Below, in pieces: positions 6,772 through 58,088 of a stretch of DNA of 64,000 nucleotides. Under the pieces are notes generated by a model. The model saw only the letters and a list, made by a program, of their open reading frames with translations. It did not search any database and was not told the DNA's origin. Numbering within the stretch: position 1 is the stretch's first letter; each line of letters starts with the position of its first letter. This DNA is from Moniliella sp. 'wahieum' (taxonomy: Eukaryota): positions 186,001 through 250,000 of the forward strand of contig RSEE01000082.1 of NCBI GenBank assembly GCA_003971905.1, read 5' to 3'. The position numbers and the translations under genes were made by a program.

Positions 6772-6828
6772 TCAAGCTTCAAGCTTCAAGCTTCAAGCTT
6801 GATCACTGCATGTCACAAGCTTCAAGCT
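6772..6828. repeat. (TCAAGCT)x4 heptamer array (AAGCTT palindrome + 1 nt)
   Basis: ctcaagcttcaagcttcaagcttcaagcttga, plus a further copy at about 6816-6828. Confidence 0.9.
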
Positions 6829-10017: not shown

Positions 10018-11419
10018 CCTCGCCTGGCCCTGCGATGGCGACGAAGGGGGAAGGGGAGGCGGAGGGTTGGTTGGTTAAAGGCGAGAAGGCGTTGACAAGT
10101 ACAGACGGTCAATAGCAGGGCAACGCCCCTGGAGCGCGGCAGGGGGTTGTGGCCCCAATGCGCCCTGGGTGTATTTTAGTGTTGCGCTCAGGCCGAGTGG
10201 GTGATAATGACGGATGACTCTCACGCGTCACGCCTCACACCGCCTTTTAAAGTACCCCCGTTCCGCCCCCGCCTTGTTCCGCTAAAGTGCTTACGTCAGA
10301 TGCGTACTTGAAACTTGCCGCCTGCAGCTTGCTTTGCTGGCCAAGCGAAGCGATCCAAAACGCAGCTGCTGGCAGGCTGGTTTGCCTCTGCTTGCGTGTC
10401 CATGTCACCAGCACCGCTGTCGGTGACGGTGCGCCTCCAGTCGAGCTTGTACGATTGGAAGCCCACGTTCAACGCGGTGTGTCACAGCCTCATGTCACAT
10501 GTCACAGGACGCTCGGTGCACCACGGGTGCCCCAATGCCCAGCGTCCAACGCGCACCGCCATGGGCGGAGGTGATATGGCGATGCCGGTGATAGCAAGCG
10601 CTGGGCGCAGCTTTCCCAGTTGGAAATCAGAAGTTGAAATGTTGCGGCTTACTTCGTTGCCTTGGGATCGACGAGCGTGTTCCGGACTACCATCAGAAAA
10701 AGAGGGGACACATCGAAGGTCCAACCCCATCTCCATCTTCACGTCGCCTCCATCTTCGCTAGCAGCCTGTCCTCCACGTCGCTCGTAGCGTCTTTCAACG
10801 GGGCCAACAAGGGCCAAGTTCCTCTTCCCGCAACACTGGCAATCCCCGGTCACTCACACTAGACTAGTACTTGAAGTCAGTCACACCGTCACGACTGGCG
10901 AAAAGTCTCATCGGAGTACCCCATCACTCGCATCACTCTATCCCAGAAGGCCAAAGGACGCGTAACGCAAGCGCCAGGAACATTGCTCTGCCAAACTTGA
11001 GGTGCTCTTGTCCTCTCCGTCACTGAAGGTGTGACTCGTCTCCAGTTGCATCATCGACATCCTCGCATTTCCCGCCCAGATCGCTGGCCATTATGCATTA
11101 TCGATCAACTGAGGGATACTGAGGTATGAGGGGGAGATCCACAACAGAGACCGAGTGACTAGTGAATGTTCACGACGTTCACACCGGTTTCCAGTGCCGC
11201 CGGTTACCGTTTACATCCAGCCCCACAGGACTCTCTCAGTACCCGAATCCTTCAGAAGCTCATTCGGGTTAGCAGCTTGCAGGCGAACCATTGCATCAGT
11301 AGCAAACTGCCGAAACGTGCCCGTCGATTCATACACGCCGCCTCACCGGCCTCAGGCCTCATCCGTTCAACGTTGTTCAACAATCAACTGAGCGTTCGTT
11401 CAACAAACGTTGACCGGCC

Positions 11420-11466
11420 TTGAAGCTGAAGCTTGAAGCTTGAAGCTTGAAGCTTGAAGCTTGAAG
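11420..11466. repeat. (TGAAGCT)x6 heptamer array (AAGCTT palindrome + 1 nt)
   Basis: ttgaagctgaagcttgaagcttgaagcttgaagcttgaagcttgaag. Confidence 0.9.
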
Positions 11467-17522: not shown

Positions 17523-18295
17523 CCTACGCTGTGTGTGGCTTTCCCGCCGGCAGCAGCAGTGGTAGCAGCTGGGCTTGGGCCTCGCATTCACTGTCAGTCG
17601 CTGCCCAGCCTGTGAATCGGCTCTGCTCGGCCACCGCCTCGGCCCAGCCCACATCCGGTACCCGGTTGCCAGTCCTCTCCCCACCCGCAAAAAAATGGTC
17701 AATATGAGGCTTGAACTCATGACCTTGGCATCACCAACACTCCCGGAGGACATATTAGTACCACGCTCTGACCAACTGAGCTAATCGACCGCTTGAGTGC
17801 GTGGTCTTTTTCCAGTAGTGTCGTCAGTTTCAATTTCAATTCTTTCAATTCCGCCAGTCGATCTAAGCGCCAATTAAGCTTTAGCGCGAATAAGCGCGCT
17901 CCCCATGGCGCTTATCAGCCTGTTTCCACTGCACCAGCCCACCGCCAGTCTCCTGCGGGTGAGGTTCACATCCATCCTTCCTGTTGCACAGCTCGGCCCA
18001 AGTTGGCCCTATACCAGTGTTGGCCTACAAGAGCCCGTAATGGGGGGTTCACAGTTCACACATCAGAGCCTGCGCGCCGAACACAAAAAAACTGGGAGTC
18101 TATCGGGGGACATGTGTGCATATTTCAATCGAGGAAGACCAGGGGGAAACAAGGCATAGGGGGAGCAAAGGGCAAGTGTGAGGAAGAAACCCCCGAACAA
18201 AAAAGGGAGGAAAGGATATGGCCTAAAGTACAGATGAACTAGAAGTAAAAGGAGAAGCAAGGGAGGCAAGGGGAGGACGGTAATGGGAGCGCGAT

Positions 18296-20359: not shown

Positions 20360-21700
20360 TAGTATCATTGATCATTGGGCGGAAAAGCAGCGGAAAGATC
20401 TCTTGACAGAGCGAAGAGCATTACGCGCGCGGTGGAAGGCGCTGGGGCAGAGGGAGTATGATAGAAAGCCCTCTCCTGTCGCATAATTATGATTGCATGC
20501 CAAAACGACCAAGGGATAAACAAAAGGAAGCGGTCCAACGGTTGGCTTCCGCAGCTACCCGCGACAGGGGAAGAGTTGGGAGTGGACGCTACTCTATAAC
20601 GGATATGATCATGTGCAAAAGCAGGAAGGTGTCCCAAACCAGAAGTATCATGCATGGTGGGTAGGGAGCCACGGAATCATTTCAGAGACAGATTCCGACG
20701 GACGTAGGTGTCATGCCCAGCACGAGCGGTCCCCTGCCTGATGGGGGTCGCCGTGGGGCTTTTAAGGGATACAATCCCTTGGATCGGAAAGGTCGATTCA
20801 CGGGATGTTATTCGTGCATGGGCCTGTTGGTGAATCCTAACGAGGGTTTAGTAGGGACAGGGAGAGGCCACTCGGACAGAAACGGCTGCTGCTTGTGTGA
20901 CAACACTTGCATAGGCTCGGGCTTGGGTAGCAGTGACGTGTCTCTAGTCATCGGTACTCTCGCGGACAAGAAAAGAGGCAGCGGAGATGACACCGCTGCC
21001 CGAACTTGGACTGCAGTGGGAACCGCTGAATTGGAAAGCTGGAGAGACCGCAAGATGCGAAACTGGAAGATCCACGGGTTGGATTGTGGATCCGAAAGCT
21101 AGTATATAGTCATCGCTAGTCACGCGCTTCATGGTCACACAGGCATATTGGGGCGCTGGCATCATCGCTAGCTGGCCGGTACTTCCCTATTTCCTCTCGT
21201 GGCACGGCGCGAAATCCCACCAAGTCGAGAACCGCTTCCGTCTCAGAGAAAATACGCATGTGTGGTGTACGAGAAACAGTGTTAGTAGGGGGTAGAAGAT
21301 GCAAGTGAAAGACTCATCGTCATTTCAACAGTTTCTGTTGTTCGAGACGAGCATTACGCTCATACCTCCTGTGGTCGTTATTGCGCAGGGGACCACCACA
21401 AATCGCGAAGATGATTTCAGGATTCAATAAAAGCGGAGCTGTGGATAACCCCACACATGTCCAAGGGATGGCTGGCGCAATGGTAGCGCGTCTGACTACG
21501 ATGAAAAGTAATCAGGAGGTTGCAGGTTTGACCCCTGCGTCGTTCGATCCGGCACGCTTTGGGTCCCATTTTTTGGCGGATAGGTCCATTCGCCATGCGT
21601 CCCGTGCCATTAACACGGACGGGTGTGAAAATTGAAATATGGGTGATGGCGGAATTGGAAAATGGGTAGATGGGCTGGATAAGCGGAGTGGGGCTGAAGA
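20360..21700 (-). CDS. Possible hypothetical or decayed gene
   Basis: Chain of short protein-like minus-strand ORFs (21116-21304, 20944-21165, 20808-21053) and a GTATGA donor near 21365; no recognisable motif. Confidence 0.2.
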
Positions 21701-25350: not shown

Positions 25351-26237
25351 CGCCTTGTCTGCTGCTTTGCAGCTGATCCATAGGATCGCGAGTGCTCCCA
25401 AGTCGCACTCTGGCAAAGATCAGGCTCATTTACGTAGCGTGAGTAACGGTACAGGATACGAAGTTAAAGAGGAACTCTGAACCGCAAACCATTGAATATT
25501 GAACGAATGTCGATGATTGACCTTATCGCAAGATACCGCGACATGGTTGGCATCGGGTTTCCAAAGCCAGTACCAGGTACGATCAGCCCCTGTACGTGTG
25601 GCCTGAACGGCCTGACGCTTGAAAAGGTTGAACGTTGACATGAGTCCGTCGGTATAACCACAGGAGCCGGCAATAAACACGTAAAACCTCCGCATCCGTA
25701 TGATGCTCATCGATCATCATGCATCATGTATCATGCATCATGCACCCAGTGACGTCATAGGCAGCTTGGCGTTGCTTATTGAAGCTATTGAAGCTTGAAG
25801 CGTGAAGAACAACAGAGCAACTATAATGCTCGTGACGCGGGCATACTGCGACGGTGGAACGGTGGCCAAGGTGGCGACGGGATGGAGCGCGAGACGAGCG
25901 GGGGAAAAGGTTGTATGGAACGGTGAACGAGGGGGCAAAGATGGTCGCAGATCGTCGCCATCAGCACGAAACAGGCTGCACAGACCGGGGGCCGCGTAAG
26001 CCCGGGGGTCCCTTCCCGTAATACGTAAATTGGATTGCACTGCCCATCCATGCCTTGGCCCAACATGTGACTCGTCAGTGACGGACGACGCCTGCGGAAG
26101 ACTGCGCAGACGAAGAGACAGAATGGGAGATCGCCACCGTTTCCCATCAACCTCACTATATATTTTTCCTCTCTCTCTCGTCTCTATCTTGGGGGTCTAT
26201 ATATCTCTCTCATCGCCCACGCTCCCATCCCTTTGCA

Positions 26238-34554: not shown

Positions 34555-35043
34555 TTAGATTGAGATGGCATGATGCACATGATGCATGATGCATGATCGA
34601 TCATTGCAACGGCTGTGAACATGTGGGACCGATGAACCCCATCGACGGTTCACGTCGATTTGGTGGGTGGAGCAGGCTGGCTCTCGTGGTCCAGGGCGGG
34701 CTTGTGGCGGACGTGTTGTTCTCGATTGGGGTTGCGTTTGCGATTCCGGGCTGGGGGAGGTGTCGTGGGTTTGGGACTTGTGCTTTTCAGCCAAAGCAGC
34801 GGCCTTTTGATGCGCTTTGGTCCCGGCTTGCTCCACGCCGTGCTCGACGGCATCAACAGCGGCGGTGGCTGCGCCGTTGGCCAAGTCGGAGAGTTGGTAC
34901 CAAAAGTTACCCTTGTGCGCGCTAGCGCCGTGCGACTCGCCCGGCTCGGCGGTCTGCGCAGACTCGGAGGGAGGATCGGACGTCGCTGGCTCCGTGGCCG
35001 GCTTCGTCGCAGAGCTGGGGGGGTCGGTGGCACTCGAGGACAT
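34555..35043 (-). CDS. Small hydrophilic (hydrophilin/LEA-like) hypothetical protein; 3' end uncertain
   Basis: ATG-initiated ORF with Ser/Ala/Thr/Pro-rich ends and a helical core GNFWYQLSDLANGAATAAVDAVEHGVEQAGTKAHQKAAALAEKH. Confidence 0.5.
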   Translation of the reverse strand: MSSSATDPPSSATKPATEPATSDPPSESAQTAEPGESHGASAHKGNFWYQLSDLANGAATAAVDAVEHGVEQAGTKAHQKAAALAEKHKSQTHDTSPSPESQTQPQSRTTRPPQARPGPREPACSTHQIDVNRRWGSSVPHVHSRCNDRSCIMHHVHHAISI

Positions 35044-45051: not shown

Positions 45052-45699
45052 GGTGGACGCAGAAGAAACGAAACGCCCAGATACGGCGGCCAGCCGACGA
45101 ATATACGAGGCCGCGTCCGCCGTCTGCATCACCCACCACGCGCGCCGCCGCCATTGCGTCACACCCGCCCGACACTGCCCCCCGGCCCACCCGCCCGCGC
45201 TTCGGCCCGCTGCTCACCGGCCAGCGTCAGCTCCGATTTGTGCCGCCCACACGGGGCCCGTGCGCACCATCGGGGCGCAGCGGGGGGGCGCTGTCCGGCC
45301 CGTCGCCCGGTCTACAGTCCCCGCGTGCCCTGGGGGTTCGGGCGGCAGGGTGGTAGGGTTATCTCTCTGTTCGTTCTTGCGCAGTGCTCGGCTGCTGAGT
45401 TGAGAAGACTCGCTCCTCCCATGTCACACCTACCATGACATATCCCGCCTCACGCAGATCGCTCCTGGCTTTGGCATCGCACTTGCTTCGTGTAAGACCG
45501 GAGGAACCCAAGGGGTTGGGCGATGAACCGCTGGAAACGGAGAGCAATGCAATCGCGGTGGTGGTGGTTGGGTCTAAGATCTAAGCCCAGTGCCACACCT
45601 AGAGACCGGGGTTCCAACAAGCCTGAGTATACACGTGGAGGCTTCAAGCTTCAAGCTTCAGACGTCAAATCAGGGACAAAGGGTGATAATCGATTGATC

Positions 45700-47478
45700 C
45701 TTCAGTTACGATGACAACGTCGATTTCAAGCAAGCCCCCTCCGTAATGGCGGAGCACAAGAGACGGCATTCGTCCCGTGACTTCGAAAACGCTCGGTTTA
45801 GCAGCACCAAAGAGTGGTCGTTTTGGCCGGAGTTGAAGAGGGAGACGTTTTCGTTTTCGACCGCAGGCCATGTAATGTCAACCTGCGCACAACCACTTCG
45901 CCTCCAAGAATTATATGGTCTTACGAGGCGTCTCCTGAATCATTCTTTATCGGAGGAGACTTTCATAACGATCTAATCCTACTTTTGTTCTACCAGGTTG
46001 GCCCGGATGCCAGCGAAGGTGCGTACGTGGTCTCTGTTCACCGCGCCACCAGTCCGCTGGATATCGATATGGAAAACAGTGATTCATCAGTATGTTGCGT
46101 TCATGAGCATGACATTGTCATGCCCTGTGCATCAATTCCTACCTATGATCACCCTTACATCGTCTTGGATGGGTCTACACTTCGGTTTTTGTAAGTCCAA
46201 CCCTGCCCCCATTTTTCGCATTGTCCTTGGCATCTGATCGATTTCATCATCGTTTCTCCATCATATCCATCAGAGACATTGGTGGCCGATAGAAGTGGTT
46301 TTTCGAGTATGCCATATCAACGGGAGAGCCTACATCCCGGGCGGTTCTGGATGCACCACAAGACGATTCCTTGGCGCATCACTCTCTCAATAATCTCCCC
46401 TTTAGAGTCGATTCTGTTTGTGTCGTGCAGGAGTGAGCTGTTCGTTTTTGACCGTGCATCGGGCGCCCGCCTTTGGTCACTGTCCGAAATGATGCAAAAT
46501 GTATCAGGTTACTGCACCAATATGGTACACCTTTCGATTGGTAGGACTGGTTCGCCTCTGGACAAATCCTGTTTACATGAAGCGGTAAGCATCCTTTCCC
46601 ATATTGCCTTGTTTTTGAGAACAAAAAACTAAATGATTTTTCTTTGCGCTTCAGGATCCACCTAACTGGTGCTTCGATTGGAGGAGCGATGGAAACATCA
46701 TTCTCTCTTCACTAGAAGTGTTCCCTGACTCGGAGAGTTTTTGGTTTCTCCTGCACACACCTCGTGACTCTTCGACTATTCCCTCCTATCTCTGTATAGT
46801 GAAGGGCTATCGCCATGCCTTTACCGGGACCGTACACACCCACCCATCTTGGTTTGTCACGGTCAACTTGGGAGGCATTACTGCTCCGGGTCCAATCATC
46901 CCTCCCACTCTCAACTATGACAGTCGCTTCATGTACCAGGCACTCTCCGACGGCTGGTCATACAAAGTGGACTCTGTCCTGCCAGGCGAGAAGGTCACCT
47001 CCATTCCGTCAACCACAAGTATCATGCCCTACAGTGAACCTCCGCTGCGCCTTGGATGCCTCAGATTGGTCCTTGTTGACTGGAAACATTCTCGTTTCCC
47101 AATGAAATTCTGTTGACAGACATGCCCCTTCGACCGACTCGGGTTGATACGCCGACACCGATGGTCTTGGGACCTGATCTCGTCCCTGATATTTCCCAAA
47201 TTGAGAAGGACAATGACAAGAATCAAAACCAAAATGGGAACAACAGTGTCCGACATCCCATGGTTCCCACCGATTCGTCCACTCCCAATCAGCACCCGGA
47301 ATTCATCTCGTACAACCACAGCTCCACTTCCTTTATTGAGCCGAGGAGTATCCTCTTCTCCACAGGGGCATTTTTGGCATTCAAAGACGATTCATATTAT
47401 AGGGATCCTCCCACTCGCTTTCACCAATTATATTGGGATTGGAGTGCCAAGGCACGCCACTGGCTCCAAACCCACTGA
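45700..47478 (+). CDS. Hypothetical protein, possibly a beta-propeller of the lineage-specific F-box-associated type; fragmented, lower GC
   Basis: Consecutive plus-strand ORFs (45746-45976, 45814-46194, 46279-46632, 46718-47116, 47113-47478) with beta-strand-like segments such as SELFVFDRASGARLWSL, and GTAAGT..CTGAT..CAG intron signals near 46191-46272. Confidence 0.4.
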
Positions 47479-47630
47479 TTGCATCCCATTTGGGACCCTC
47501 AACATCCTCACAGCCTGGACTGGTTCCCTCTCGGTCCTCAGGCCGCACACCTCATTTTCCTTGCCGCATTTCCGACAGGTAAGACCCATCGAATCCACCG
47601 GTGCTATGCGTTGGCGGGAAAAGGGGGAAG

Positions 47631-48452
47631 TGTTACGGGCTGCGGCGGACCCGAGATGGTCCGATCCAAGCTGAGGCCCGCCTGCTGCGCTCACATGCCC
47701 AGTAGAGCGAGCTCCGCAGGCCAACCAAGTGTGATGATGGTTGGCTAAATAGGTGTCGTGGTCCGAAGGGCCATGCATCCGCGCAACATCCGCGCAACCG
47801 TGGCCCTCCGCCCAACCGAGCTTCCACCTCTGTCTTCGTTTCCTTTTCCTTTCTCGGTCGCGCCTGCGGCGACCAACCCCGCCTTCGACGTGTCTTCCTT
47901 TCTGCAGACCTTCTTGTATTCGTTTCCCTTTTGATCATGCCTGCCCCCCTGGTTGTGGGGGATCCTTTCTCCCACCTTTCGTTCTCGTCATCTCTCGTCT
48001 ACCCTCTATCCTCGTCCTTTCCCGCCTATCCTGTCCGACCCCGCCCGTTTTCCAGCCAATTGATCCAGTTGACAGTCAGCCTCCTCTTGTTAGCGTCCGA
48101 CTCCTCCTCCGACCTCGTCCTCCAGCAATCCGTCAGTCCAGTCGAGCGAGCCCTCCTCTAGCCGCGTCGATTTCCAGTCTCTATCCAGTCTCAGTTGAGG
48201 CAGTCTTTGTCCGCCGCTGCTTCCTCCCCTCCCTAAGTCCGGAGGCTTCAGGCATGTTACTACAGCCCAAGCCGGTGCAGACGCAGTCAGTTGCTACACG
48301 AGCAGCCGCCTCACCAAAGGTCTCTCCTCGTCCCTAGGTACTGTACGCTCGAATTCACTAACTAGCCCAAGCCCGAAACTACCGTGAGTCGACCTACCGT
48401 CGCCTAAGGGATTGTACCCCATCAAAACCCCAACAGGGCGGCCCCCCTTATG
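47631..48452 (+). mobile_element. Probable LTR-retrotransposon LTR relic preceded by a polypurine tract
   Basis: GGGAAAAGGGGGAAG (47616-47630) directly followed by TGTTACG; TATA-like CTAAATA near 47745 then a CT-rich tract; the last ~220 bp are homologous to 51029-51285. Confidence 0.55.
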
Positions 48453-49353
48453 AGTTCTGAGTACTCAGTCTGAGTGTTCTATGCGATCGAAACGCGTAGA
48501 AATGATGGTATCATCAAGGACAATATATCAGGGATGGCTAGCGGCTCCCAACAAATTGGATTAGGCGGCGCACGAAAGCTATAGGCGGTGCGCACATAGA
48601 TGCGTGAAAACGTTCGCAACATTTTACTTGCCTGAACTGTAGTGCAGGCTACCTAGGCGCCTCTTTCCACATGAGGCCTGAGGCTCAGGCTCAAGCGCAT
48701 GCGTTCCTGCCGCCTGAGGGCACGAGGCTTGAAGCTTGAAGCTTGAAGCTTGAAGCTCTTAAAGCTCCCGATCTTAAGCTTCAGGCTTCAAGAATTTCAA
48801 GCCACAACAAGTCTATTACTCAGATCTCAGATCTCAGACTCAGTATACTCATACTCGGACTCACCGGTCAGGAAGGCTGTCCCCAAACACGCTCCTCTCA
48901 GCCGCAGAAGCTTGAACTTCAAGCTTCAAGCTTCAAGCCTCAATATCGCACTATCTCAATCTTCAAGCTTCAGGGCTGACATGTGGAGAATGCATCTCAT
49001 ACAGCACACACTGCATCGGCCTCTGAAAATCAGGGAAGAGAAGAGAAGTATAAGGCCTAAGGCCCTAAGGCTTATAGGCCTTGCACCATGCTTGATGTCG
49101 ACGAGCGATCGCTTGAGAGGCATGGATGTATGATGCATGATATACGATGTATGACGCGTGACGGGTGCCGCTGTCGGAGCCGCGCAACGAAACATTTCCG
49201 GGACGAGGCGCAAGAAGGGTGGGACTCCTTCATAGATTGATGTCGGCGAAGCCGGAGGGCATATGCCATGTGACATGTGACATGTGAGGCCTGAGAGGCC
49301 CGGAGAGCCCTCCAGGGTGGGGGCGGGAGAGGGGGCTCAGCCGGTCAATATAA

Positions 49354-49418
49354 GTCAACGGGTCAACCCTTGTCAACCCTCGTCAACCCTTGTCAACCAC
49401 GTCAACCACGTCAACCAC
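49354..49418. repeat. GTCAAC(C)-core tandem array, 7 copies at 9-10 bp spacing
   Basis: gtcaacgg-gtcaaccctt-gtcaaccctc-gtcaaccctt-gtcaaccac-gtcaaccac-gtcaaccac. Confidence 0.85.
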
Positions 49419-50982
49419 ATCTCGGTCTGAGATCTGAACACTCAAGTTGAGTCCAATGTTCAACCACTAACTGCTCCGCCTGGACGGATAAACGTTAAAC
49501 GTATCAACAGTAAACTGCTTAGAAGCATGGGGAGAATTCAAGTCAGCGTGTGGTTCCCGAGGAGCCTACTGTAGAGGCAGTGTGACATGTGACATGTGAT
49601 GCATGATGGTAGAGAGCAGCGTCGTTAACGTGATTGATGTCATTAACCATCATTATCGCGTCTGCGTCTGTTACCTCCAGTCCGTATAAGCCACAATTGG
49701 TTCTATAGTCGATCCTATACAAGCCGAAAGGGCTTGCGCTTATGGCGCTTATATGAGCCAAAAGCGGATGGGATAGGCGATTATAGAGAGAGGCCAGAGC
49801 AGCGCCATCTATACTAGCGGTTAATTATAGCAATAGTGCTTCGTTCGTGCCTTGGTTACAAAAGGGAGAGAGGGAAGCGGGAAGAACACAGAACAGAACA
49901 ACATGACCGTCGATGAGATCGATGGGACTGTAGCTGGTTCTATGTATAGCAAGTGCGAAGCAGAGACGAACGAGCACACACGGAGTACTGCGAGCAGCCT
50001 AAGACCTAACTGCTGACTGTGCTGACTGCTGAACGCTGAACTCATCCTCTGAGGACTCAACCTGAATGCGCAGCCAGCCCAGAGCAAGTTTTGAAAATTG
50101 GCATTGAAGCTTGAAGTATATCTCGAGCGGGAACGAGAACAAGAGAGGAAAGACATCATGCGTGCACGGGGAGTGGCTATCGAGTGGCTTTTGTTGTAGA
50201 ACTAGTCAGCAGTTTTCTAGTCACTGCTAATCACAAGTCACATGCATCACAGCTATACTATATATACCCTGCCTTCTGTACTCAGTGTACTCAGTACTCA
50301 CTGCATGCAGTCACGTCCTCTCAGATCTCAGATCTCACGCGTCACAGTGACATGGCCACAAAATACCTGCAACACCATCCTGGAGGAAGAGGGCACATCA
50401 AACATCTGCCTCAAGCTTCAAGGAGGGTCTCTCAGGGTCTCGATCTGTAGCACCCTCCGGCCTCCCGCGTCCCGTCGCCGTCAACGCGTCTCAACGTGTC
50501 AACTTTAAACCCTTCAAGGTGGGGTGACAGATCTGAGGTCCAAAAGACCTGACAGGTTCGAGATCTGACTGGAGAGTGACTAGTGACTAGTGACTAGTGA
50601 CTCCCCGGCGATGAGAGTCAAGCTGATTGGTTGAGCTTAGTCGAGCTTCAAACTCCAAGTGACGAGTACTAACTAAAGTGATTCCCCCAGTTAGTACGTT
50701 ATACTGTAACAATTTCATTGACAGAGGTTAAGTCTGGGACAGGGGAACACTACGCCTAAACCGACCCGTTCACTTTGCGTGTGTTACTTGGTAGTGCCAC
50801 CATGCTAGGGAACCAGGGGGATCGCCAGGATATCAGGAACCTCTGGTGCTTGCCATCCGCGTACCCGAGGTGGTAGCGCGTGTGGACACGGATGAACGTG
50901 GTAGACTTCCGAGCTATACAACAACACTACTGTCGACTTGCAGCGCTTGAGGTTCTACGCCGCGGTATCTACACGTTTTACA

Positions 50983-51295
50983 TGTTACGCGTTGCACGTT
51001 TTGAAGAGATTCTCCTGCCTCTGCTCGACCCTATGCCCCGGAGGCTTCAGCCACGTTACTACGGCCCAAGCCGGTGCATATATACGCTGCCTTGCCACAC
51101 ATGCAGTGCAGCCACCTATGCTTGACGGCTTTACGGTTTGGCACCCAGCGGCCTCTCTCTCCTCGTCCCTAGCTCCGCTCGGATCCACCACCTAGCCTAA
51201 GCCCGAAACTACCGTGAGTCGACCTACCGTCTCCGAAGGTATTGTACCCCATAACCCTGGCTGAGCCCCTTGGTGGGGCCCCCGTCTCCGTGACA
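50983..51295 (+). mobile_element. Second, related LTR-like fragment; 5' boundary uncertain
   Basis: Shares a 33-nt exact core AAGCCCGAAACTACCGTGAGTCGACCTACCGTC (51199-51231 = 48369-48401) and flanking similarity with the first copy; ends in CGTGACA; TGTTACG at 50983. Confidence 0.5.
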
Positions 51296-51722
51296 TGTGA
51301 CATTGAATCAGGGGGAAGGATGGAAGGGGTGGCTTCCGTGCAGATCTCCCTGGTATATATGTACTTGGCAAACCTGTCTCTTTTCTTGCAATCTATTTGC
51401 GCCCCAGTAGTTTTCCCTTTCCCAGTTTCCTTCGGTGTCCCAACATGGGCATTTGTTCATGCACCCAGTATTGCATGTACACAACTTGGTACATGATCGA
51501 TCTCCGAGTCTCTTGGTAGGATGCGCGGCTGGGCTGGGGGGGGCATCCCGTCCATGAGGATGGAACGGTACAGTGGGGAGCATATAGATAGAACAAGGCA
51601 GCACCATTGGACTTACTAGATTCCTGGCCGACGGCTTGTCGCCGTGACCACACAATAAAGGGAAGGTTCAAGTGACGTACGAACGACACCGCTTGGGCGA
51701 GCCGGGTGGCGTCGTAAACACG

Positions 51723-51772
51723 CGTAACGCACAACTCGTAACGCACAACTCGTAACGCACAACTCGTCACGC
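51723..51772. repeat. 14-bp tandem repeat (CGTAACGCACAACT)x3 plus a partial copy
   Basis: cgtaacgcacaact three times, then cgtcacgc. Confidence 0.9.
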
Positions 51773-54700
51773 GGATGATAATCGATAATCGATAAATCGA
51801 TAATCCAAGGCAGACAATCCCAAACGCATTCACATCTTGGCAGATACATTTCGCACTCGGTTGTAGCGTACATACTCGGACTCAGTACTCAGTCTGAGTA
51901 ACTCAAGTATCGAGGAGTGCTCACCTGCTCACCGGTCACTCAGTCTGAGATCTGAGGGCGACTGAGCGCACGCCTCTCCGCCTCAGCGCTCAGTCCGAAA
52001 TTGAAATTGAATATCCAGATGGTAAGATCAAGGTCGGAGAGACGCCACACCCCGACACGCGTCGGGTAATCTGGCAGCCCTCACGATCTCAGATCTGGAG
52101 ATATCCAGCTTCCAGAGTGGCTGAGAGGCTGGTCCACACGTACGTACATTCCCAGTATTCAGATTGAGATTGAGATTGAGCTATTGAGTCTACATACCCA
52201 GCACTCCATACTGCGTAGTGCCTCTCCAGCGAATCAGTAACCGGTAACCGGTAACCTAGGGCCTATAGTGGGGCCAAGGGAAGATCTCAGCCTGAGGCTC
52301 AAGCCTCAGGCCCTCAGGCCGGGCAAGCCGGTCAAGCGTCAAGCCAAGGGACCAGCGGCTCAGCCAGGAGCACCGCGCGCCCTCCGTCTGAGTACTCAGC
52401 GCGTCAGCCGCTCCGGCTGAGCCCTATTAAACCCTTGAGCCCCCACGGGCGGGTGGGTACACGCATGCATCATACATCATGCATCGAAGAATTCGATCCC
52501 CAAGCTCCCTGGCCAGCAGCTTGAGGCGTTGCATGTTACACGCTGTTAAGCCTTTTGGAAGCGCAGCCACAGGATGTCGGATCGTCGAATCGCACAGCAC
52601 ACAGTACTGTGGTACTACCGAGCACTGGATCATGAATCCTGAGGATTCAGTCTGAGGCCTGAGCGCCTGAGCCTGATATTGATTGAATCCTGCATGGTGC
52701 GGAATGCTATGCGCGCCCACCGGCCACCATCCACACATCCACAACAATTTATCCGCCATGCTCTTGGGGGCGCAGGCGTCCTGTCCGTCTCTAGCTGGTT
52801 CAGCCAAGCCGTCGGAGTGAGTCGTGAACCGTAGCGCGTGACCGCGTGACCGGTATCACCGGACAAACCTCGGTGCTCGTACTTGTACTGAGGCGAGTAG
52901 TCAGCGCCATAAAAATGGTGTGTGTTTTGGCGTGTGTGTGCGCTGATTGGGTGGGTGGTAATGAAATGGATCAAACGAGCGTGGGGGGTGGGATGCTAGG
53001 TGCCTAGCGCCAACAAACACAGCTAGGTGCAAGCCAACAGGGGCTTGGTGTATGGGCAGGTGCGGCGGGGGCGGAGAGAGGGCGAATGTGTGGTGGCGGA
53101 ACCCCGCTGGTGGAGGACTGGGCGCTGGAAGGGGAGGCGCGTGGCGAGTGCTACGTATCGAGGCCGGATAAAAAAAGCAAAGCGAGGGGACAGTGGCGGG
53201 GTGGGTGGGCGAGGGACGGCGACTTGTTTCTGGTATGCTGTGCGCTATGCGATGCTGGGGGGTAGGGTTAGGGTGTGTGAAACGATGCGCGTGATGCAAT
53301 GCACTGCGATGTATAGACCACCGCACGCGTGGCCCGCCCCCAAGCCATAGCAGTCATCATGCATCAGTGCATCTGTGCTTCAGTACTCAGTCTGAGTACT
53401 CAGGGCTGCATTCTGCGCGCCCCGCCACACCGCAGGGTGTGGCGCAGGGTGTGTGTGCCTTGCGACGGCGCACAACAAATGACCCCATGCAGGCGGAATG
53501 CATACGGCTGCTCTGTCCGCTCTGGTGGGACGCATCTGCAGAGGGGACCCTAAGGCCTAACCCCCCCACGCTGTCCCACGTCGCTTCCGTCCTGCGCAGG
53601 GCCTGAGCCTGCCTGAGCATGTCAGATCCGCGGCGGGGCGCCGAGGCAGGCGCGTAGTAGGCGGACGTGCCCCGTCGGCGCATCGGACAGCTGGGCGTGG
53701 GCAGTGTGCTGCGCTGCCTTTGCCACAGCACGCGCCAGCCTGTCTCGATCGCTGGGCTGCCTTTGGCTGCTGGGATGCGCTGGGATCGATGATCGATCGG
53801 GCTGCGTCGGGTCGCAGAGGATGGGTGATCTGAGACAGACGCCATACTATGGCGGGTACGCGCTGGGGGCAGACGCAGGCAGGGGCCTGTGTAGGGGTAT
53901 GTATATATGTATGCATAGCATCCTGCAGCGCATGCACCCGTCCCGACGCGGCCGGCGCCATCTCGGGCACGGGCGATGTGTACCCGCCTGCACCCCGGCG
54001 ACCCCAGTAAAAACCCTGGCACACGCGTCTGCGGGCGTGGGGCGGACCCTCCCATCACCCTCCCTCTGCTCCTCCACCCTGGTCTTCTCGCTTCCGCCCG
54101 CTGGGTCCCGTGCCCTGCCCTATCCGCACCATCGACCCTTCCTTCCCTCCGCTCTGCTCTGCTCCACCTCCATCGCATCTCATCCCCTCCCCTCGTCGTA
54201 CGTGTTACCCCTTCCTTCCCCCATCCCCCACCGACAGCCCACGCGGGGGGGCAGCCTTGCCTCTGGCCAGCACACCTCCTCCAACCGCAAGTCACTAGCT
54301 TCCCACTACCTTCACCAGTCCAGTGCGCCGCCCCACCGTCGTTCTGTGCTCCTGCCGCCACAATCGATCCACTGGCTCTCCTCCGCCTCGTCCGTCGTCC
54401 CGCCGCCCACAACACAACTCCGTCGGCGCCCCACCGATCGCCGACGGTCCGATCCCACACCCCACTTCACATCAGTACTCAGTAGTACTCAGTACTCAGG
54501 GCCGCCACCCGAATCACAGCTGCGCAGCCGGACGCTGGCCATGTCCTTAGCGTTGGCGCACGTGCCCCCCCCGCCCCTAACCCCCCCCCCCGCTTTTCCT
54601 TGTCACATGTCACATCCATCTCGGGTGCTATCCCAGCTCCGTCTCCTTGTATCCGTTACTGACTTGCGCTCCTTCGTTTTTGCCCTCTCTGTGCGCTGCG

Positions 54701-55082
54701 TCACATTAATCTGCACTACTCATTTCCGGGGCTACCGTCATGTCCGCGACTGACCTGCTGCGATGTTGACCGTCACGTTTACCGCCGACCATGCATCATC
54801 ATCATCCCATCAACATCCTCATCCTCATCGTCATCGTCATCGTCATCATCGTGCATGGTCCCGCCCTCTTCAGGCGCCAGGTGTGGTAGCTCAGCTTAGC
54901 TCGCCCTCCAGGTTCAGGTGGATTGAACGGCGCTTTCCTGCTGTGTTGACCTGATCCTTTTAAGTCCAAGTGGGAATTCGGAAAAGACCTTTCTTCACCC
55001 ATCATATTTCGCCTCGCCCCCGGCAACCCCCTCCCCCTCCTCCCTCTAGCGTTACCTGTTCTACCTCCCACGGCGGCCATCC

Positions 55083-57988
55083 ATGCCTCGTCTCGATCCT
55101 ACTGCCGCCGATATTGTGATCGATGAACGGCTTCCTCCTCTGCCAGCGCTTCCGCGAGCGGGATCGACCACTGTGCCCAGCACGCTTGAACGTGCTGCTC
55201 CTACTCCCTCGCGTCGCTCTGGTCCCGAATGGCGCCGGCAGCCCGGCCCATCGTTTGTCAATGGCCCGGGAAATCTGACCTCGGGTCACATTCCCCAGTT
55301 CAATAAGGCCGGCGCGCCACCTGCGTTTCGTACCCCCCAACATCACGTGGTGCTGGCGCAGGGTCCGCAGGTCTGCATCCCTACCCTCCCTCCTTTATGC
55401 CTATGGACCAAGCCAAGCCCGCTCGGATGCCCTTGCGACAATCGGCAATGGGGGCACCGCTGCATCCAAGCATGTCCCCTGATACGCCCAAGTTTGGTGC
55501 GTTTGCCTCGCATCGGACCGGCGGGGCGTATGCGCCGTCGTCTTCCCCCGACGATCCAAGTCGGCGCGGCGAGAATGGAATGAACTTTGCTCCTCTCCGC
55601 TCGCACTCTGGTTCGGCAGCCACTTCGGGTTCGGAATTCTCTTCACTTCATTCGGCCCCTTTTCCCATCCCGGCCTTGCCCCCGCCTCCGCCTCAAATCC
55701 AGACGGGGAGCGTGGGAATGCTGAGCTTGCACGACGAACGGATTTTGGCACCGTTCCTGAAACCACGGGCCAAGCGGCGCCGTGACCACGAGGCAGGTCA
55801 CGCTTCTACTTCTACCAAATCCCGCCCGTCCGTCGACCACACTGATTCCCTCGGTGGCTCGCCCGAGGGCGACGGGGATGTGAAACCACACCTCGAAAGT
55901 GAGGATACTACGAAACCTGCGCTTTCCTCCGAATCGCCAGATGTGCCCACGGCGGATACCACACTACCCGACTCGTCGGCTACCAAGCGCAAACGTCCCC
56001 CCCGCGGTCCAGCGAACGTCCTGGCCCCGTCATGATCGATGGCAAAAAACGATACCCCTGTGGCTCGTGTACACTTACGTTTAGCACCAGTGGTCATGCC
56101 GCCCGGCACAGTCGGATTCATCGTGGTACGTTACATGTCCTTGTGCGCGCTTGCTTGGTTCGTTTTTTTCACGTTGGCCTCTGTCCTCGTGGCGATCCAA
56201 TTTACCGCTTTACCCATCGAGATGCGATCCTGGCTGACCTGCTGACCATTGTGCTTTGCGTCGTGCTTTGCGTCCTCTGGACCTGCTAGGTTCGCGGCCG
56301 TACGTGTGCACCTTTCCCGGCTGTGGCAACCGTTTTTCGCGCCAAGACAATAGCTTGCAGCACTACAAGACGCATGTGAGCGCATCGCGCAATTCGCGCG
56401 ACAATGAGCTAGGGTACTTGCTCAAGTCGGCCGCAGAGATCGCGCAGGAGGACCGGTACATTGCGTTGGGCAAGAAAGCCTTACTGGATGGCACGGCGAT
56501 TGCGGTGATGCACGACGTGTTTGACAGCAAGGGTCGGCGGACGGGGGAGAAACTAGTGCGGTCCGTAGGCGCCGACTTGTCTACTCGCTTGCCTCGGTCT
56601 AAGAACGACCCTACGCCACCGGCGCATGTGCTGCAACGGTGGAGGTGGAACGCAGGCGGCCACTGCGAGTCAACATGGTTACCTCGGTAGGTGCAACCGC
56701 GCTCGAGGCACAGGCACGCCAAGATTCTTCCTCTGCTTCTGCTTCTGCTCTTTCCGCCCGCTGCGATGGCCGACCCCATGGCTCCCATGTCCGACTCGAC
56801 CCGGCTCGGCGCGGCTTTGGGACCGACGATGGCCGCGGGTGGATTGTAGGTGCACCAGTCACTTCTTCCATTGGCGATCCGAGCGGCGGAGGAGGGGCGG
56901 TGGTCTGCCCCCACGCACCATGCCCTACTCCATGTCGACGGCAGGTCCAGGCCCAGGGCCGGGCGCGACGACCGCCAGCGCGGGCTATGGCGCCATGCCT
57001 TCCAATCCCGTTTCCGTAACGTTTGCCGACCCTTCGCTCGGCCCCGTTTCCACGGCGACGGGTGGGCAGCGTCGGGTGCTGATGGCGTGCCGGCCCAGTT
57101 TGGCCCTTCGACCCCAACCGTGTTCCCTCGTGCGAGCACGAGCACGAGCACGTCGAGTAGCAGCGTGACGGGCCGTGTGATGCCGGTCGGCATGGCGGCT
57201 GTCTCGCCTACCAATATGGGTGGCTACGGCCCGTCTGCCTCTGCCTCGCACGCCTCGCATGCGCGCTCCTCAGCGTCCTACCCTCCTGGCCGTGGGCACA
57301 CAGATATGGGCAACACGGTACCCAGCCACTCGCCTACGACCGCATCTGAGATGACTGTCATGTCCGCCGCCCGGGCCCGGGGGGCACCAGCACCAGTACC
57401 GGCACTACCTTTGGCCCGAGCATGACGTCTGCCCGCCCACCACATCCACATCCACCACCACCCTGCTCCCGCCTTCGCCGATGATCAACCCGGGTGCATC
57501 TACGATGTACGTGTCGGGTCCGTCGGGCGCGGTAGGTGCGCAAGGGCTCGAGTACAGTTCGGGACGCGCAGCAGAACGGACCCAGTTCGCAGCACAGGTA
57601 TTACCCTTCGTACGCACAGGCACAAGCACAAGCACAAGCACAAGCACAGGCACAGGCACAAGCACAGGCACATGCACAGGCACAAGCGCCAGGACAAGCG
57701 CCGGGGCAAGCTACGTGGCGCCCGCCCGGGCCAGGACCGAACCAGGCTATGGCCTACCACGCTTCGGGCTACGCTTCGGGCTACGCTCCGTCCGGCGGGC
57801 CCTACTACCAAGCGTCGCCTTCGTACGCCATGACGTCGGCGCCGCCAGGGCGGGTGCACGGCGCAGCCTGTTCCAGGCTGGCGCCTGCGCAACGAAGCGC
57901 GCGTACAATTAATGAGCCGTTGAGTATCGGTCACGGTACACGTACAGGGTACTATACTTTGCCTGCAGTGCGCCTTGGAGTACCTTAG
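55083..57988 (+). CDS. C2H2 zinc-finger transcription factor, Nrg1-like (intron 56127-56289 between the fingers); ends approximate
   Basis: YPCGSCTLTFSTSGHAARHSRIHR|GSRPYVCTFPGCGNRFSRQDNSLQHYKTH matches the Nrg1-family signature (TSGHLARH.RIH..C..PGC..RFSR.DN..QHY.TH); low-complexity tail with (AQ)n. Confidence 0.85.
57614..57688 (+). repeat. (GCACAA/GCACAG)n hexamer repeat encoding poly-(AQ)
   Basis: YAQAQAQAQAQAQAQAQAHAQAQAPGQ in ORF 57536-57988. Confidence 0.85.
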
Positions 57989-58088
57989 TTCGCCGTTTGG
58001 GCCCTGTAGGTGGTGCCCTGTAGCGTTGTGCCCTGTCTGGCTCTTGGCTCTTGGCTGCTGTTTGCCTAGACTCCGACTCTCTCGAGAG

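Follow-up and report, generated by a model that had tools for sequence, protein, structure and literature searches.

What process could write short tandem arrays that share a 7-bp period but not a sequence into one stretch of a genome? The question is raised by a 64,000-bp stretch of Moniliella sp. 'wahieum' (GenBank assembly GCA_003971905.1, contig RSEE01000082.1, here C82:186001-250000; hereafter the window), in which an earlier note, made from the sequence alone, had described arrays of many unrelated A-NNNN-T palindromes. The assembly, 69.5 Mb in 223 contigs, is that of a multi-subgenome basidiomycete, and a sister haplotype of the window lies on contig C105. Relatives of its RPS4, found at 79–84% identity, belong to basidiomycetes. 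We find that the arrays arise from single insertions that repeat a TNA-centred target beside two inverted bases copied from its flank, and that they are probably footprints left by the excision of a cut-and-paste DNA transposon and stacked at the same sites.

Tandem arrays of TNA triplets and palindromic cores

All 21 arrays that had been listed were found at or within 12 bases of their given coordinates, 20 of them with at least 2.0 exact units; the short ones include seven of exactly 2.0 units and one of 1.7 units (53380). Among the 49 exact period-7 runs of at least 14 nt in the window, in 28 the unit is a hexameric palindrome with one further base, and in 27 of the 28 the palindrome has the form A....T, compared with 0.05–0.5 (maximum 2) in controls from Markov models of orders 1, 3, and 5 (20 controls each). 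Palindrome-plus-one runs of period 9, 11, or 13 were absent from the window.

The unit is better described as a fixed TNA triplet followed by a 4-mer templated by the flank than as A-NNNN-T plus a base. Within the window, TNA-N4-TNA occurs with a palindromic core 93 times and with all other cores together 95 times, the latter equalling the background; the enrichment is therefore limited to the palindromic class. All 16 possible palindromic cores were found in a 434-kb sample (of which 80 kb had been chosen on array hits), where the N of the two flanking TNAs was the same in 480 cases, flipped in 45, and otherwise different in 42. The 123 isolated TNA-palindrome-TNA sites (hereafter scars) displayed no strong preference past T-N-A.

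The 7-base pattern is genome-wide and, in the window, concentrated. The 21-mer (TGAAGCT)3 gave 1039 overlapping matches in the genome, whereas its reversed control gave 0. Twelve stretches picked regardless of arrays, 120 kb in total, held 81 sites, of which roughly one in ten would be expected by chance; at the resulting density of approximately 0.6 sites per kb, the 69.5-Mb assembly would hold tens of thousands. In the window, 46 of the 79 sites fall within 48450–54500, and only 4 lie in the roughly half of it marked as genic from open reading frames, so the earlier remark that conserved exons are free of arrays was about right. Copies of long terminal repeats (LTRs) contained no site in 23 kb, and retrotransposon copies contained 12 in 33 kb. 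A genome-wide description of such arrays was not encountered in the literature searched, which took in few subscription journals.

Single-step insertions at TNA

The origin of the arrays can be read from haplotype pairs, of which 162 kb were aligned; 11 pairs of paralogous loci and a tandem duplicate were excluded from the counts. In one step, ab-TNA-xy becomes ab-TNA-xy-y'x'-TNA-xy, or the mirror of this, y'x' being the inverted bases. Indels of 5, 6, 7, 8, and 9 bp numbered 57, 47, 59, 24, and 22, respectively, and the rule at TNA, on either strand, accounts for 22 of the 59 orthologous 7-bp indels. The target is non-palindromic in 18 of the 22, and 14 of these (one, at 10232, doubtful) are impossible as direct duplications. 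Growth of a microsatellite by slippage, that is, by direct duplication of the unit, was rejected on these 14 indels, and together with the 16 cores, each mirroring its flank, they uphold the earlier view that neither one transcription factor site nor plain slippage explains the arrays. Between haplotypes, the rate is approximately one event per 290 substitutions (22 events, 6398 substitutions). A longer, +9 step at TNA was found in 4 of the 22 9-bp indels, for example at L032:7617, where a full 7-bp repeat encloses 2 inverted bases.

The direction of change was established once: among 32 LTR copies, the C105 allele carries an insertion opposite window position 47730, and bases are present there in 2 of the 32 rows. 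A clean rule insertion at T-C-C (window 11016, compared with L010) indicates that the A of TNA is not absolute. No rule insertions were seen in 18 young retrotransposon copies.

The junctions themselves were classified in 234 kb by splitting the spacer between identical triplets into an xy-y'x' piece and a b'a'-ab piece. Strict left-overhang and right-overhang junctions numbered 54 and 41, respectively, at TNA, against 0–3 at ANT, GNC, and CNG, while the plain 7-bp duplication was not enriched at TNA (11, against 19–31 at the control triplets). The strict +8 classes numbered 6 and 3 at TNA and the +9 classes 4 and 5, with 0–1 at the control triplets. Together with the 9-bp indels, these TNA-specific classes show that bases of either flank may be included in the repeat, to a maximum of 7 bases. 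The junctions thus contain a residual target duplication of fixed maximal length, 5 to 7 bases and centred on TNA, as well as P nucleotides templated by the flank.

Repeated events at one place leave a signature of their own. In 494 kb we counted 399 scars or arrays, 25 of them with mixed cores, and all 25 switch core exactly once. The left core agrees with the left flank in 21 of the 25, and on the right such agreement is seen in 17 (chance, 1/16 each). Since the new TNA targets within a scar keep the outer flanks ab and xy, revisits can yield at most two cores, each mirroring its own flank. Arrays are longest for the AGCT core, at up to 12 units, and slippage or a favoured target may contribute to these.

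Probable transposon excision and competing explanations

Three properties, namely the repetition of up to 7 bases on both sides, the direct copying of N, and the restriction to TNA, argue for a 7-bp target duplication followed by excision via flank hairpins, and the combination of that duplication with inverted bases lacking a central base points to hairpins that are flush. In the reading we favour, a transposase would insert into ab-T-N-A-xy, a target of 7 bp that would be duplicated when the gaps are filled; excision would seal each flank as a flush hairpin in the fashion of RAG and Transib; and, by analogy, a host nuclease would cut each hairpin open 2 nt beyond its tip, so that xy-y'x' and b'a'-ab would project as 3' overhangs of 4 nt. 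End joining would usually retain one overhang and trim the other, giving the +7 outcome actually found (TNA-xy-y'x'-TNA-xy or its mirror), and partial trimming would less often give +8 to +10. Scars would offer new TNA targets, and revisits would lengthen the array with at most one core per flank, which is the pattern of the mixed arrays. We infer insertion, hairpin formation, and hairpin opening from the outcome, which is what the junctions record.

Flank hairpins are formed by hAT, Transib, MULE, and RAG according to the account in PMC5499845, and Artemis is described as opening hairpins mainly 2 nt 3' of the tip, which yields 4-nt 3' overhangs (PMC2175297). V(D)J coding joints and RAG/Transib excision resemble the scars in the flank hairpin, the even tip palindrome, and two P nucleotides as the main product, as described in the relevant parts of PMC2175297 and PMC5499845. 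They differ in that the duplication here is 7 bp and TNA-centred, compared with 5 bp reported for ProtoRAG (PMC7481187), and in that the scars have a very uniform outcome, iterated into tandem arrays over a fungal genome. Judged by sequence features, the scars would class as a RAG/Transib-type excision footprint. A mutational or repair process, as first proposed, is borne out, now with hairpin (P-nucleotide) geometry at TNA; the accompanying statement that no named system is known was too strong, since V(D)J coding joints and the P-nucleotide-bearing footprints of excised transposons are named analogues.

Other transposon families fit less closely. Footprints of Ac/Ds (hAT) likewise combine a target duplication with P nucleotides from hairpin opening and end joining, whereas their palindrome is centred on the complement of the element-adjacent base, as PMC5873905 presents it, and the scars have no central base. 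The dominant class has an even 4-mer core and not the one-base-centred palindrome of the hAT type: palindromic spacers of 3 numbered 113 with the same N and 107 with N flipped at TNA, and 93 and 64, respectively, at ANT. The hAT7 elements of rust fungi, also basidiomycetes, are listed with 7-bp duplications, as the scars imply (PMC12730594). T1 of Cryptococcus deneoformans has few copies, is active, and inserts between genes (41 of 46 in intergenic DNA), close to promoters, in the account of PMC9942834; unlike the scars, it is given no target motif there, nor does the main text use the term footprint. The upstream bias of the scars and their scarcity in LTR copies would fit targeting of open chromatin, by analogy with T1 as portrayed in that report.

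PIF/Harbinger elements target a 3-bp TNA or TWA. They share with the scars a TNA triplet on both sides, whereas a 3-bp duplication cannot give a flank-templated core or the +9 class. A Harbinger footprint, that is, a 3-bp duplication without a flank-derived core, was looked for and rejected, and the genome contained no match to PF13359.

EnSpm/CACTA was the only DNA-transposase family detected among those searched. Its profile PF02992 (Transposase_21) matched the genome three times (C17, C34, and C127), once above the Pfam cut-off, and more distant copies would escape such a search. Beyond Harbinger, MULE (PF10551), Tc1 (PF13358), and Plavaka (PF18759) gave no genome match; neither did hAT (PF05699) and KDZ (PF18758), whose positive controls were silent, hence the absence of these two does not follow. 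The C34 gene (L120:3262-6872) nearly spans a profile of 45 sequences including itself, and the catalytic-type motifs D, D, C(2)C, and H(3-4)H could be read by eye in its frames, across breaks that may be assembly errors. The C17 transposase retrieved 437 relatives in a HMMER search and none among longer proteins in a word-based search. EnSpm is grouped with Transib and RAG1 by common motifs in the classification of PMC12730594. An EnSpm/CACTA-like element (CMCT clade) with an unusual 7-bp duplication is, tentatively, the likeliest agent. Other candidates were set aside: a cluster of 3-kb repeats, which reads as genes that we take to be oligopeptide-transporter-like; two LTR-like families, which make 5-bp duplications; and a non-LTR retrotransposon. 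Large haplotype-specific insertions had neither terminal inverted repeats (TIRs) nor a 7-bp duplication at their aligned ends.

Two structures were noted at these transposase genes. A 440-bp repeat (L117:2616-3055) with at least 35 copies lies directly upstream of the C17 gene. The C127 locus (L123/L124, C127:102702-118000) is a large inverted duplication (approximately 93%) with a host protease-like gene and part of the EnSpm-like transposase gene, and one of its arms lacks 2.6 kb.

Several observations weigh against the excision of an ordinary transposon, or against EnSpm as its source. Among the 7-bp indels outside the 22, 28 are unclassified and 3 follow the rule at non-TNA sites (the other 6 are direct duplications), and the direction of most indels cannot be read. 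Of the 315 one-core arrays (mixed arrays excluded), 61 match neither flank, which we attribute to sites arising by chance and to subsequent mutation. Footprints described so far vary more than these scars do. The C34 gene is single-copy, the first catalytic D is replaced by H in the C17 gene, no ends (such as the CA..TG termini of this family), TIRs, or duplication were found around the C17, C34, and C127 genes, and the described CMCT/EnSpm members make duplications of 2–5 bp according to PMC12730594, compared with the 7 bp implied here. A TIR element with a 7-bp TNA-centred duplication was not found in 727 kb (partly redundant, approximately 1% of the genome), in which four candidates failed, although the 399 scars or arrays in 494 kb would lead one to expect more copies still in place had the history been that of an ordinary transposon.

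This shortage is the main evidence against such a history, and it keeps in play a non-mobile or hit-and-run enzyme that makes 7-nt staggered cuts around TNA, after which the ends are filled in and form hairpins but nothing stays inserted. Either a domesticated transposase or a transpososome that lets go as soon as the target gaps are filled might act in this way. Plentiful scars beside absent elements, EnSpm-like genes without recognisable ends, and a junction geometry identical to that of transposon excision are all as this explanation would have them. A non-mobile host enzyme is at odds with the distribution of the candidates, C34 being single-copy and C17 missing from all 3 syntenic homeologous regions, unlike conserved host genes; the latter also led us to reject C17 as a domesticated EnSpm gene. 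We know of no host enzyme with a 7-nt stagger and hairpinned ends, and consider the explanation unlikely overall. There is likewise an outside chance that an EnSpm-like transpososome acts in this hit-and-run manner: once strand transfer at NN-TNA-NN had taken place and the host had filled the 7-nt gaps, the new 3'-OH ends, still unligated, would attack the other strand, and the element would leave at once. If so, the flush hairpins, the uniform scar, and the absence of stuck copies would all be explained; one or a few elements could place uniform +7 insertions by the tens of thousands in open chromatin while their own copy number stayed low. Such an element would be a mutator acting across the lineage and would give tandem repeats a new way to form.

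Polymerase errors would need no element at all. A nascent end that folds at T-N-A, copies two bases back, and realigns would place inverted bases beside a short direct repeat, and the +7 step can be drawn in this manner. Snap-back or template switching, which the earlier note had put forward, would nevertheless require loopless inverted copying at the xy/y'x' junction, and it predicts that GNC and CNG serve at least as well as TNA, yet those two gave 0–3 junctions; among X-N-X' triplets, TNA alone works. A return past the triplet would flip N, which was kept 480 times against 45, and the +8 and +9 classes that repeat both flanks are left unexplained. On its own, this mechanism is distinctly improbable.

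Binding sites of dimeric transcription factors, selected and multiplied by slippage, would account for clustering upstream of genes (chiefly in the 6 kb before a zinc-finger gene), for rarity in LTR copies, and for the greater length of the AGCT arrays. They would not account for all 16 cores, each mirroring its flank, with non-palindromic cores unenriched, or for new scars where no repeat stood before. Conservation between haplotypes, at 0.95–0.97 for T, A, and core and 0.96–0.99 for N, is about that of the neighbouring DNA (0.94–0.96). With a divergence of approximately 4%, the opposite allele has a gap at 26 of 123 to 38 of 136 sites. These figures do not suggest selected sites, which we regard as very improbable. 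An artefact of amplification, sequencing, or assembly is scarcely credible: small indel errors are common in this assembly, with many core-gene frameshifts (e.g., in KGD1), but the arrays recur at matching places in separately assembled contigs approximately 4% diverged, occur in other subgenomes, and avoid coding DNA. Top2-like (4-nt) and Spo11-like (2-nt) staggers were rejected by reasoning, being incapable of repeating both flanks or retaining N.

If transposon excision is the source, the scars preserve past transposon landings throughout the genome, much as fossils would, and from them one can read, without experiment, how long the target is (7 bp), which motif it has (TNA), and where a fungal end-joining pathway opens hairpins; they also reveal a way of seeding short tandem repeats other than slippage. 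Should the agent be EnSpm-like, they would be evidence that this superfamily excises via flush, RAG-like flank hairpins and is able to make 7-bp duplications.

Sites in the window and their genomic setting

The scar-dense region lies between a solo-LTR-like repeat (47631–48448) and a gene for a zinc-finger protein that begins near 55050 (Table 1).

Table 1. Arrays, scars, and neighbouring features, in window coordinates
Feature	Position	Strand	Remarks
(TCA AGCT)n, 4.1 units	6772..6800		
(TGA AGCT)n, 5.7 units	11427..11466		between divergent genes; C105 ~27 bases shorter
TCA TGCA and TGA AGCT scars	25715..25801		
(TGA TGCA)n, 2.9 units	34578..34597		
Minimal event, TC-TAA-GA-TC-TAA-GC	45573..45585		C105 has TC-TAA-GC; 5 bases repeated, 2 inverted
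(TCA AGCT)n	45641..45660		directly upstream of KGD1; 14 bases missing in C105
Solo-LTR-like repeat	47631..48448		right end truncated; C105 allele with one rule insertion opposite 47730
Non-coding region dense in scars, upstream of C2H2 zinc-finger gene	48450..54620		33 arrays or single scars in 48400-54700
(TGA AGCT)n, 4.4 units	48727..48757		shorter in C105 haplotype
(TCA GATC)n, 2.9 units	48819..48838		common to C105
(TCA AGCT)n, 3.1 units	48917..48938		C105 has single target CT-TCA-AG; 14-bp indel
TAA GGCC TAA scar, then +8 variant TAA GGCCC TAA	49051..49072		
Mixed-core TGA CATG/CATG/GGCC	49267..49294		one switch
Mixed-core TGA CATG/CATG/TGCA	49581..49606		end cores both match flanks; C105 without TGCA unit
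TCA GTAC TCA scar, preceded by +9 variant TCA GT GTAC TCA	50278..50300		+9 variant repeats whole 7-bp target
Mixed-core TCA GATC/GATC/CGCG	50319..50344		
(TGA CTAG)n, 4.0 units	50575..50602		common to C105
End fragment, high-copy non-LTR retrotransposon	50712..50914	-	
Single scar TGA CATG TGA	51290..51303		
(TAA TCGA)n, 2.7 units	51777..51795		
Single scar TCA GTAC TCA	51880..51893		
(TAA CCGG)n, 2.9 units	52237..52256		
Single scar TCA GTAC TCA	53380..53391		surrounding stretch differs from C105
TCA GTAC scars with +10 junction TCA GTA GTAC TCA between	54472..54499		
Downstream gene, two C2H2-like zinc fingers	55050..57990 (approximate)	+	Pfam zf-C2H2 match below cut-off

An odd-length palindrome, CTCAG-T-CTGAG, recurs in the same region (48464–48474, 51885–51895, 51940–51950, 52648–52658, and 53386–53396) and may be either a scar variant or a true binding site. 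The solo-LTR-like repeat has TGTCAC...GTGACA ends, many of its other copies are flanked by 5-bp duplications, and a second fragment lies 2.8 kb away at 51029–51295. The non-LTR retrotransposon, which is presumably Cnl1/CRE-like, belongs to a young family (also at L031:1215-4090 and in L048) with copies 92–98% identical, a reverse transcriptase frame, and one fixed end. A low-GC, gene-like segment and the LTR (window 45709–48448) occur as two tandem copies in C105 (L013:7957-10000 and L014:1928-4710), and the frames of this segment gave no Pfam match.

The assembly contains seven copies of KGD1: the window copy, that of C105 (96%), and five at 77–78%. Further haplotype pairs among the KGD1 contigs are C22/C20 and C3/C61, and the copies (C82, C105, C6, C22, C20, C3, and C61) form at least four lineages, with pairs at 93–96% and groups at 77–88%, which marks the assembly as a complex hybrid or polyploid one. 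Frameshifts occur in core genes, KGD1 among them, so small indel errors are common and genes that appear broken may be intact. Elsewhere in C82, and in C105, lies a cluster of approximately 3-kb paralogous genes (C82:86-146 kb; L027-L032 and L037-L041) that resemble oligopeptide transporters. Two Rfam tRNA matches in the window, at 17696–17790 (-) and 21466–21546 (+), were called by Rfam and not by ARAGORN.

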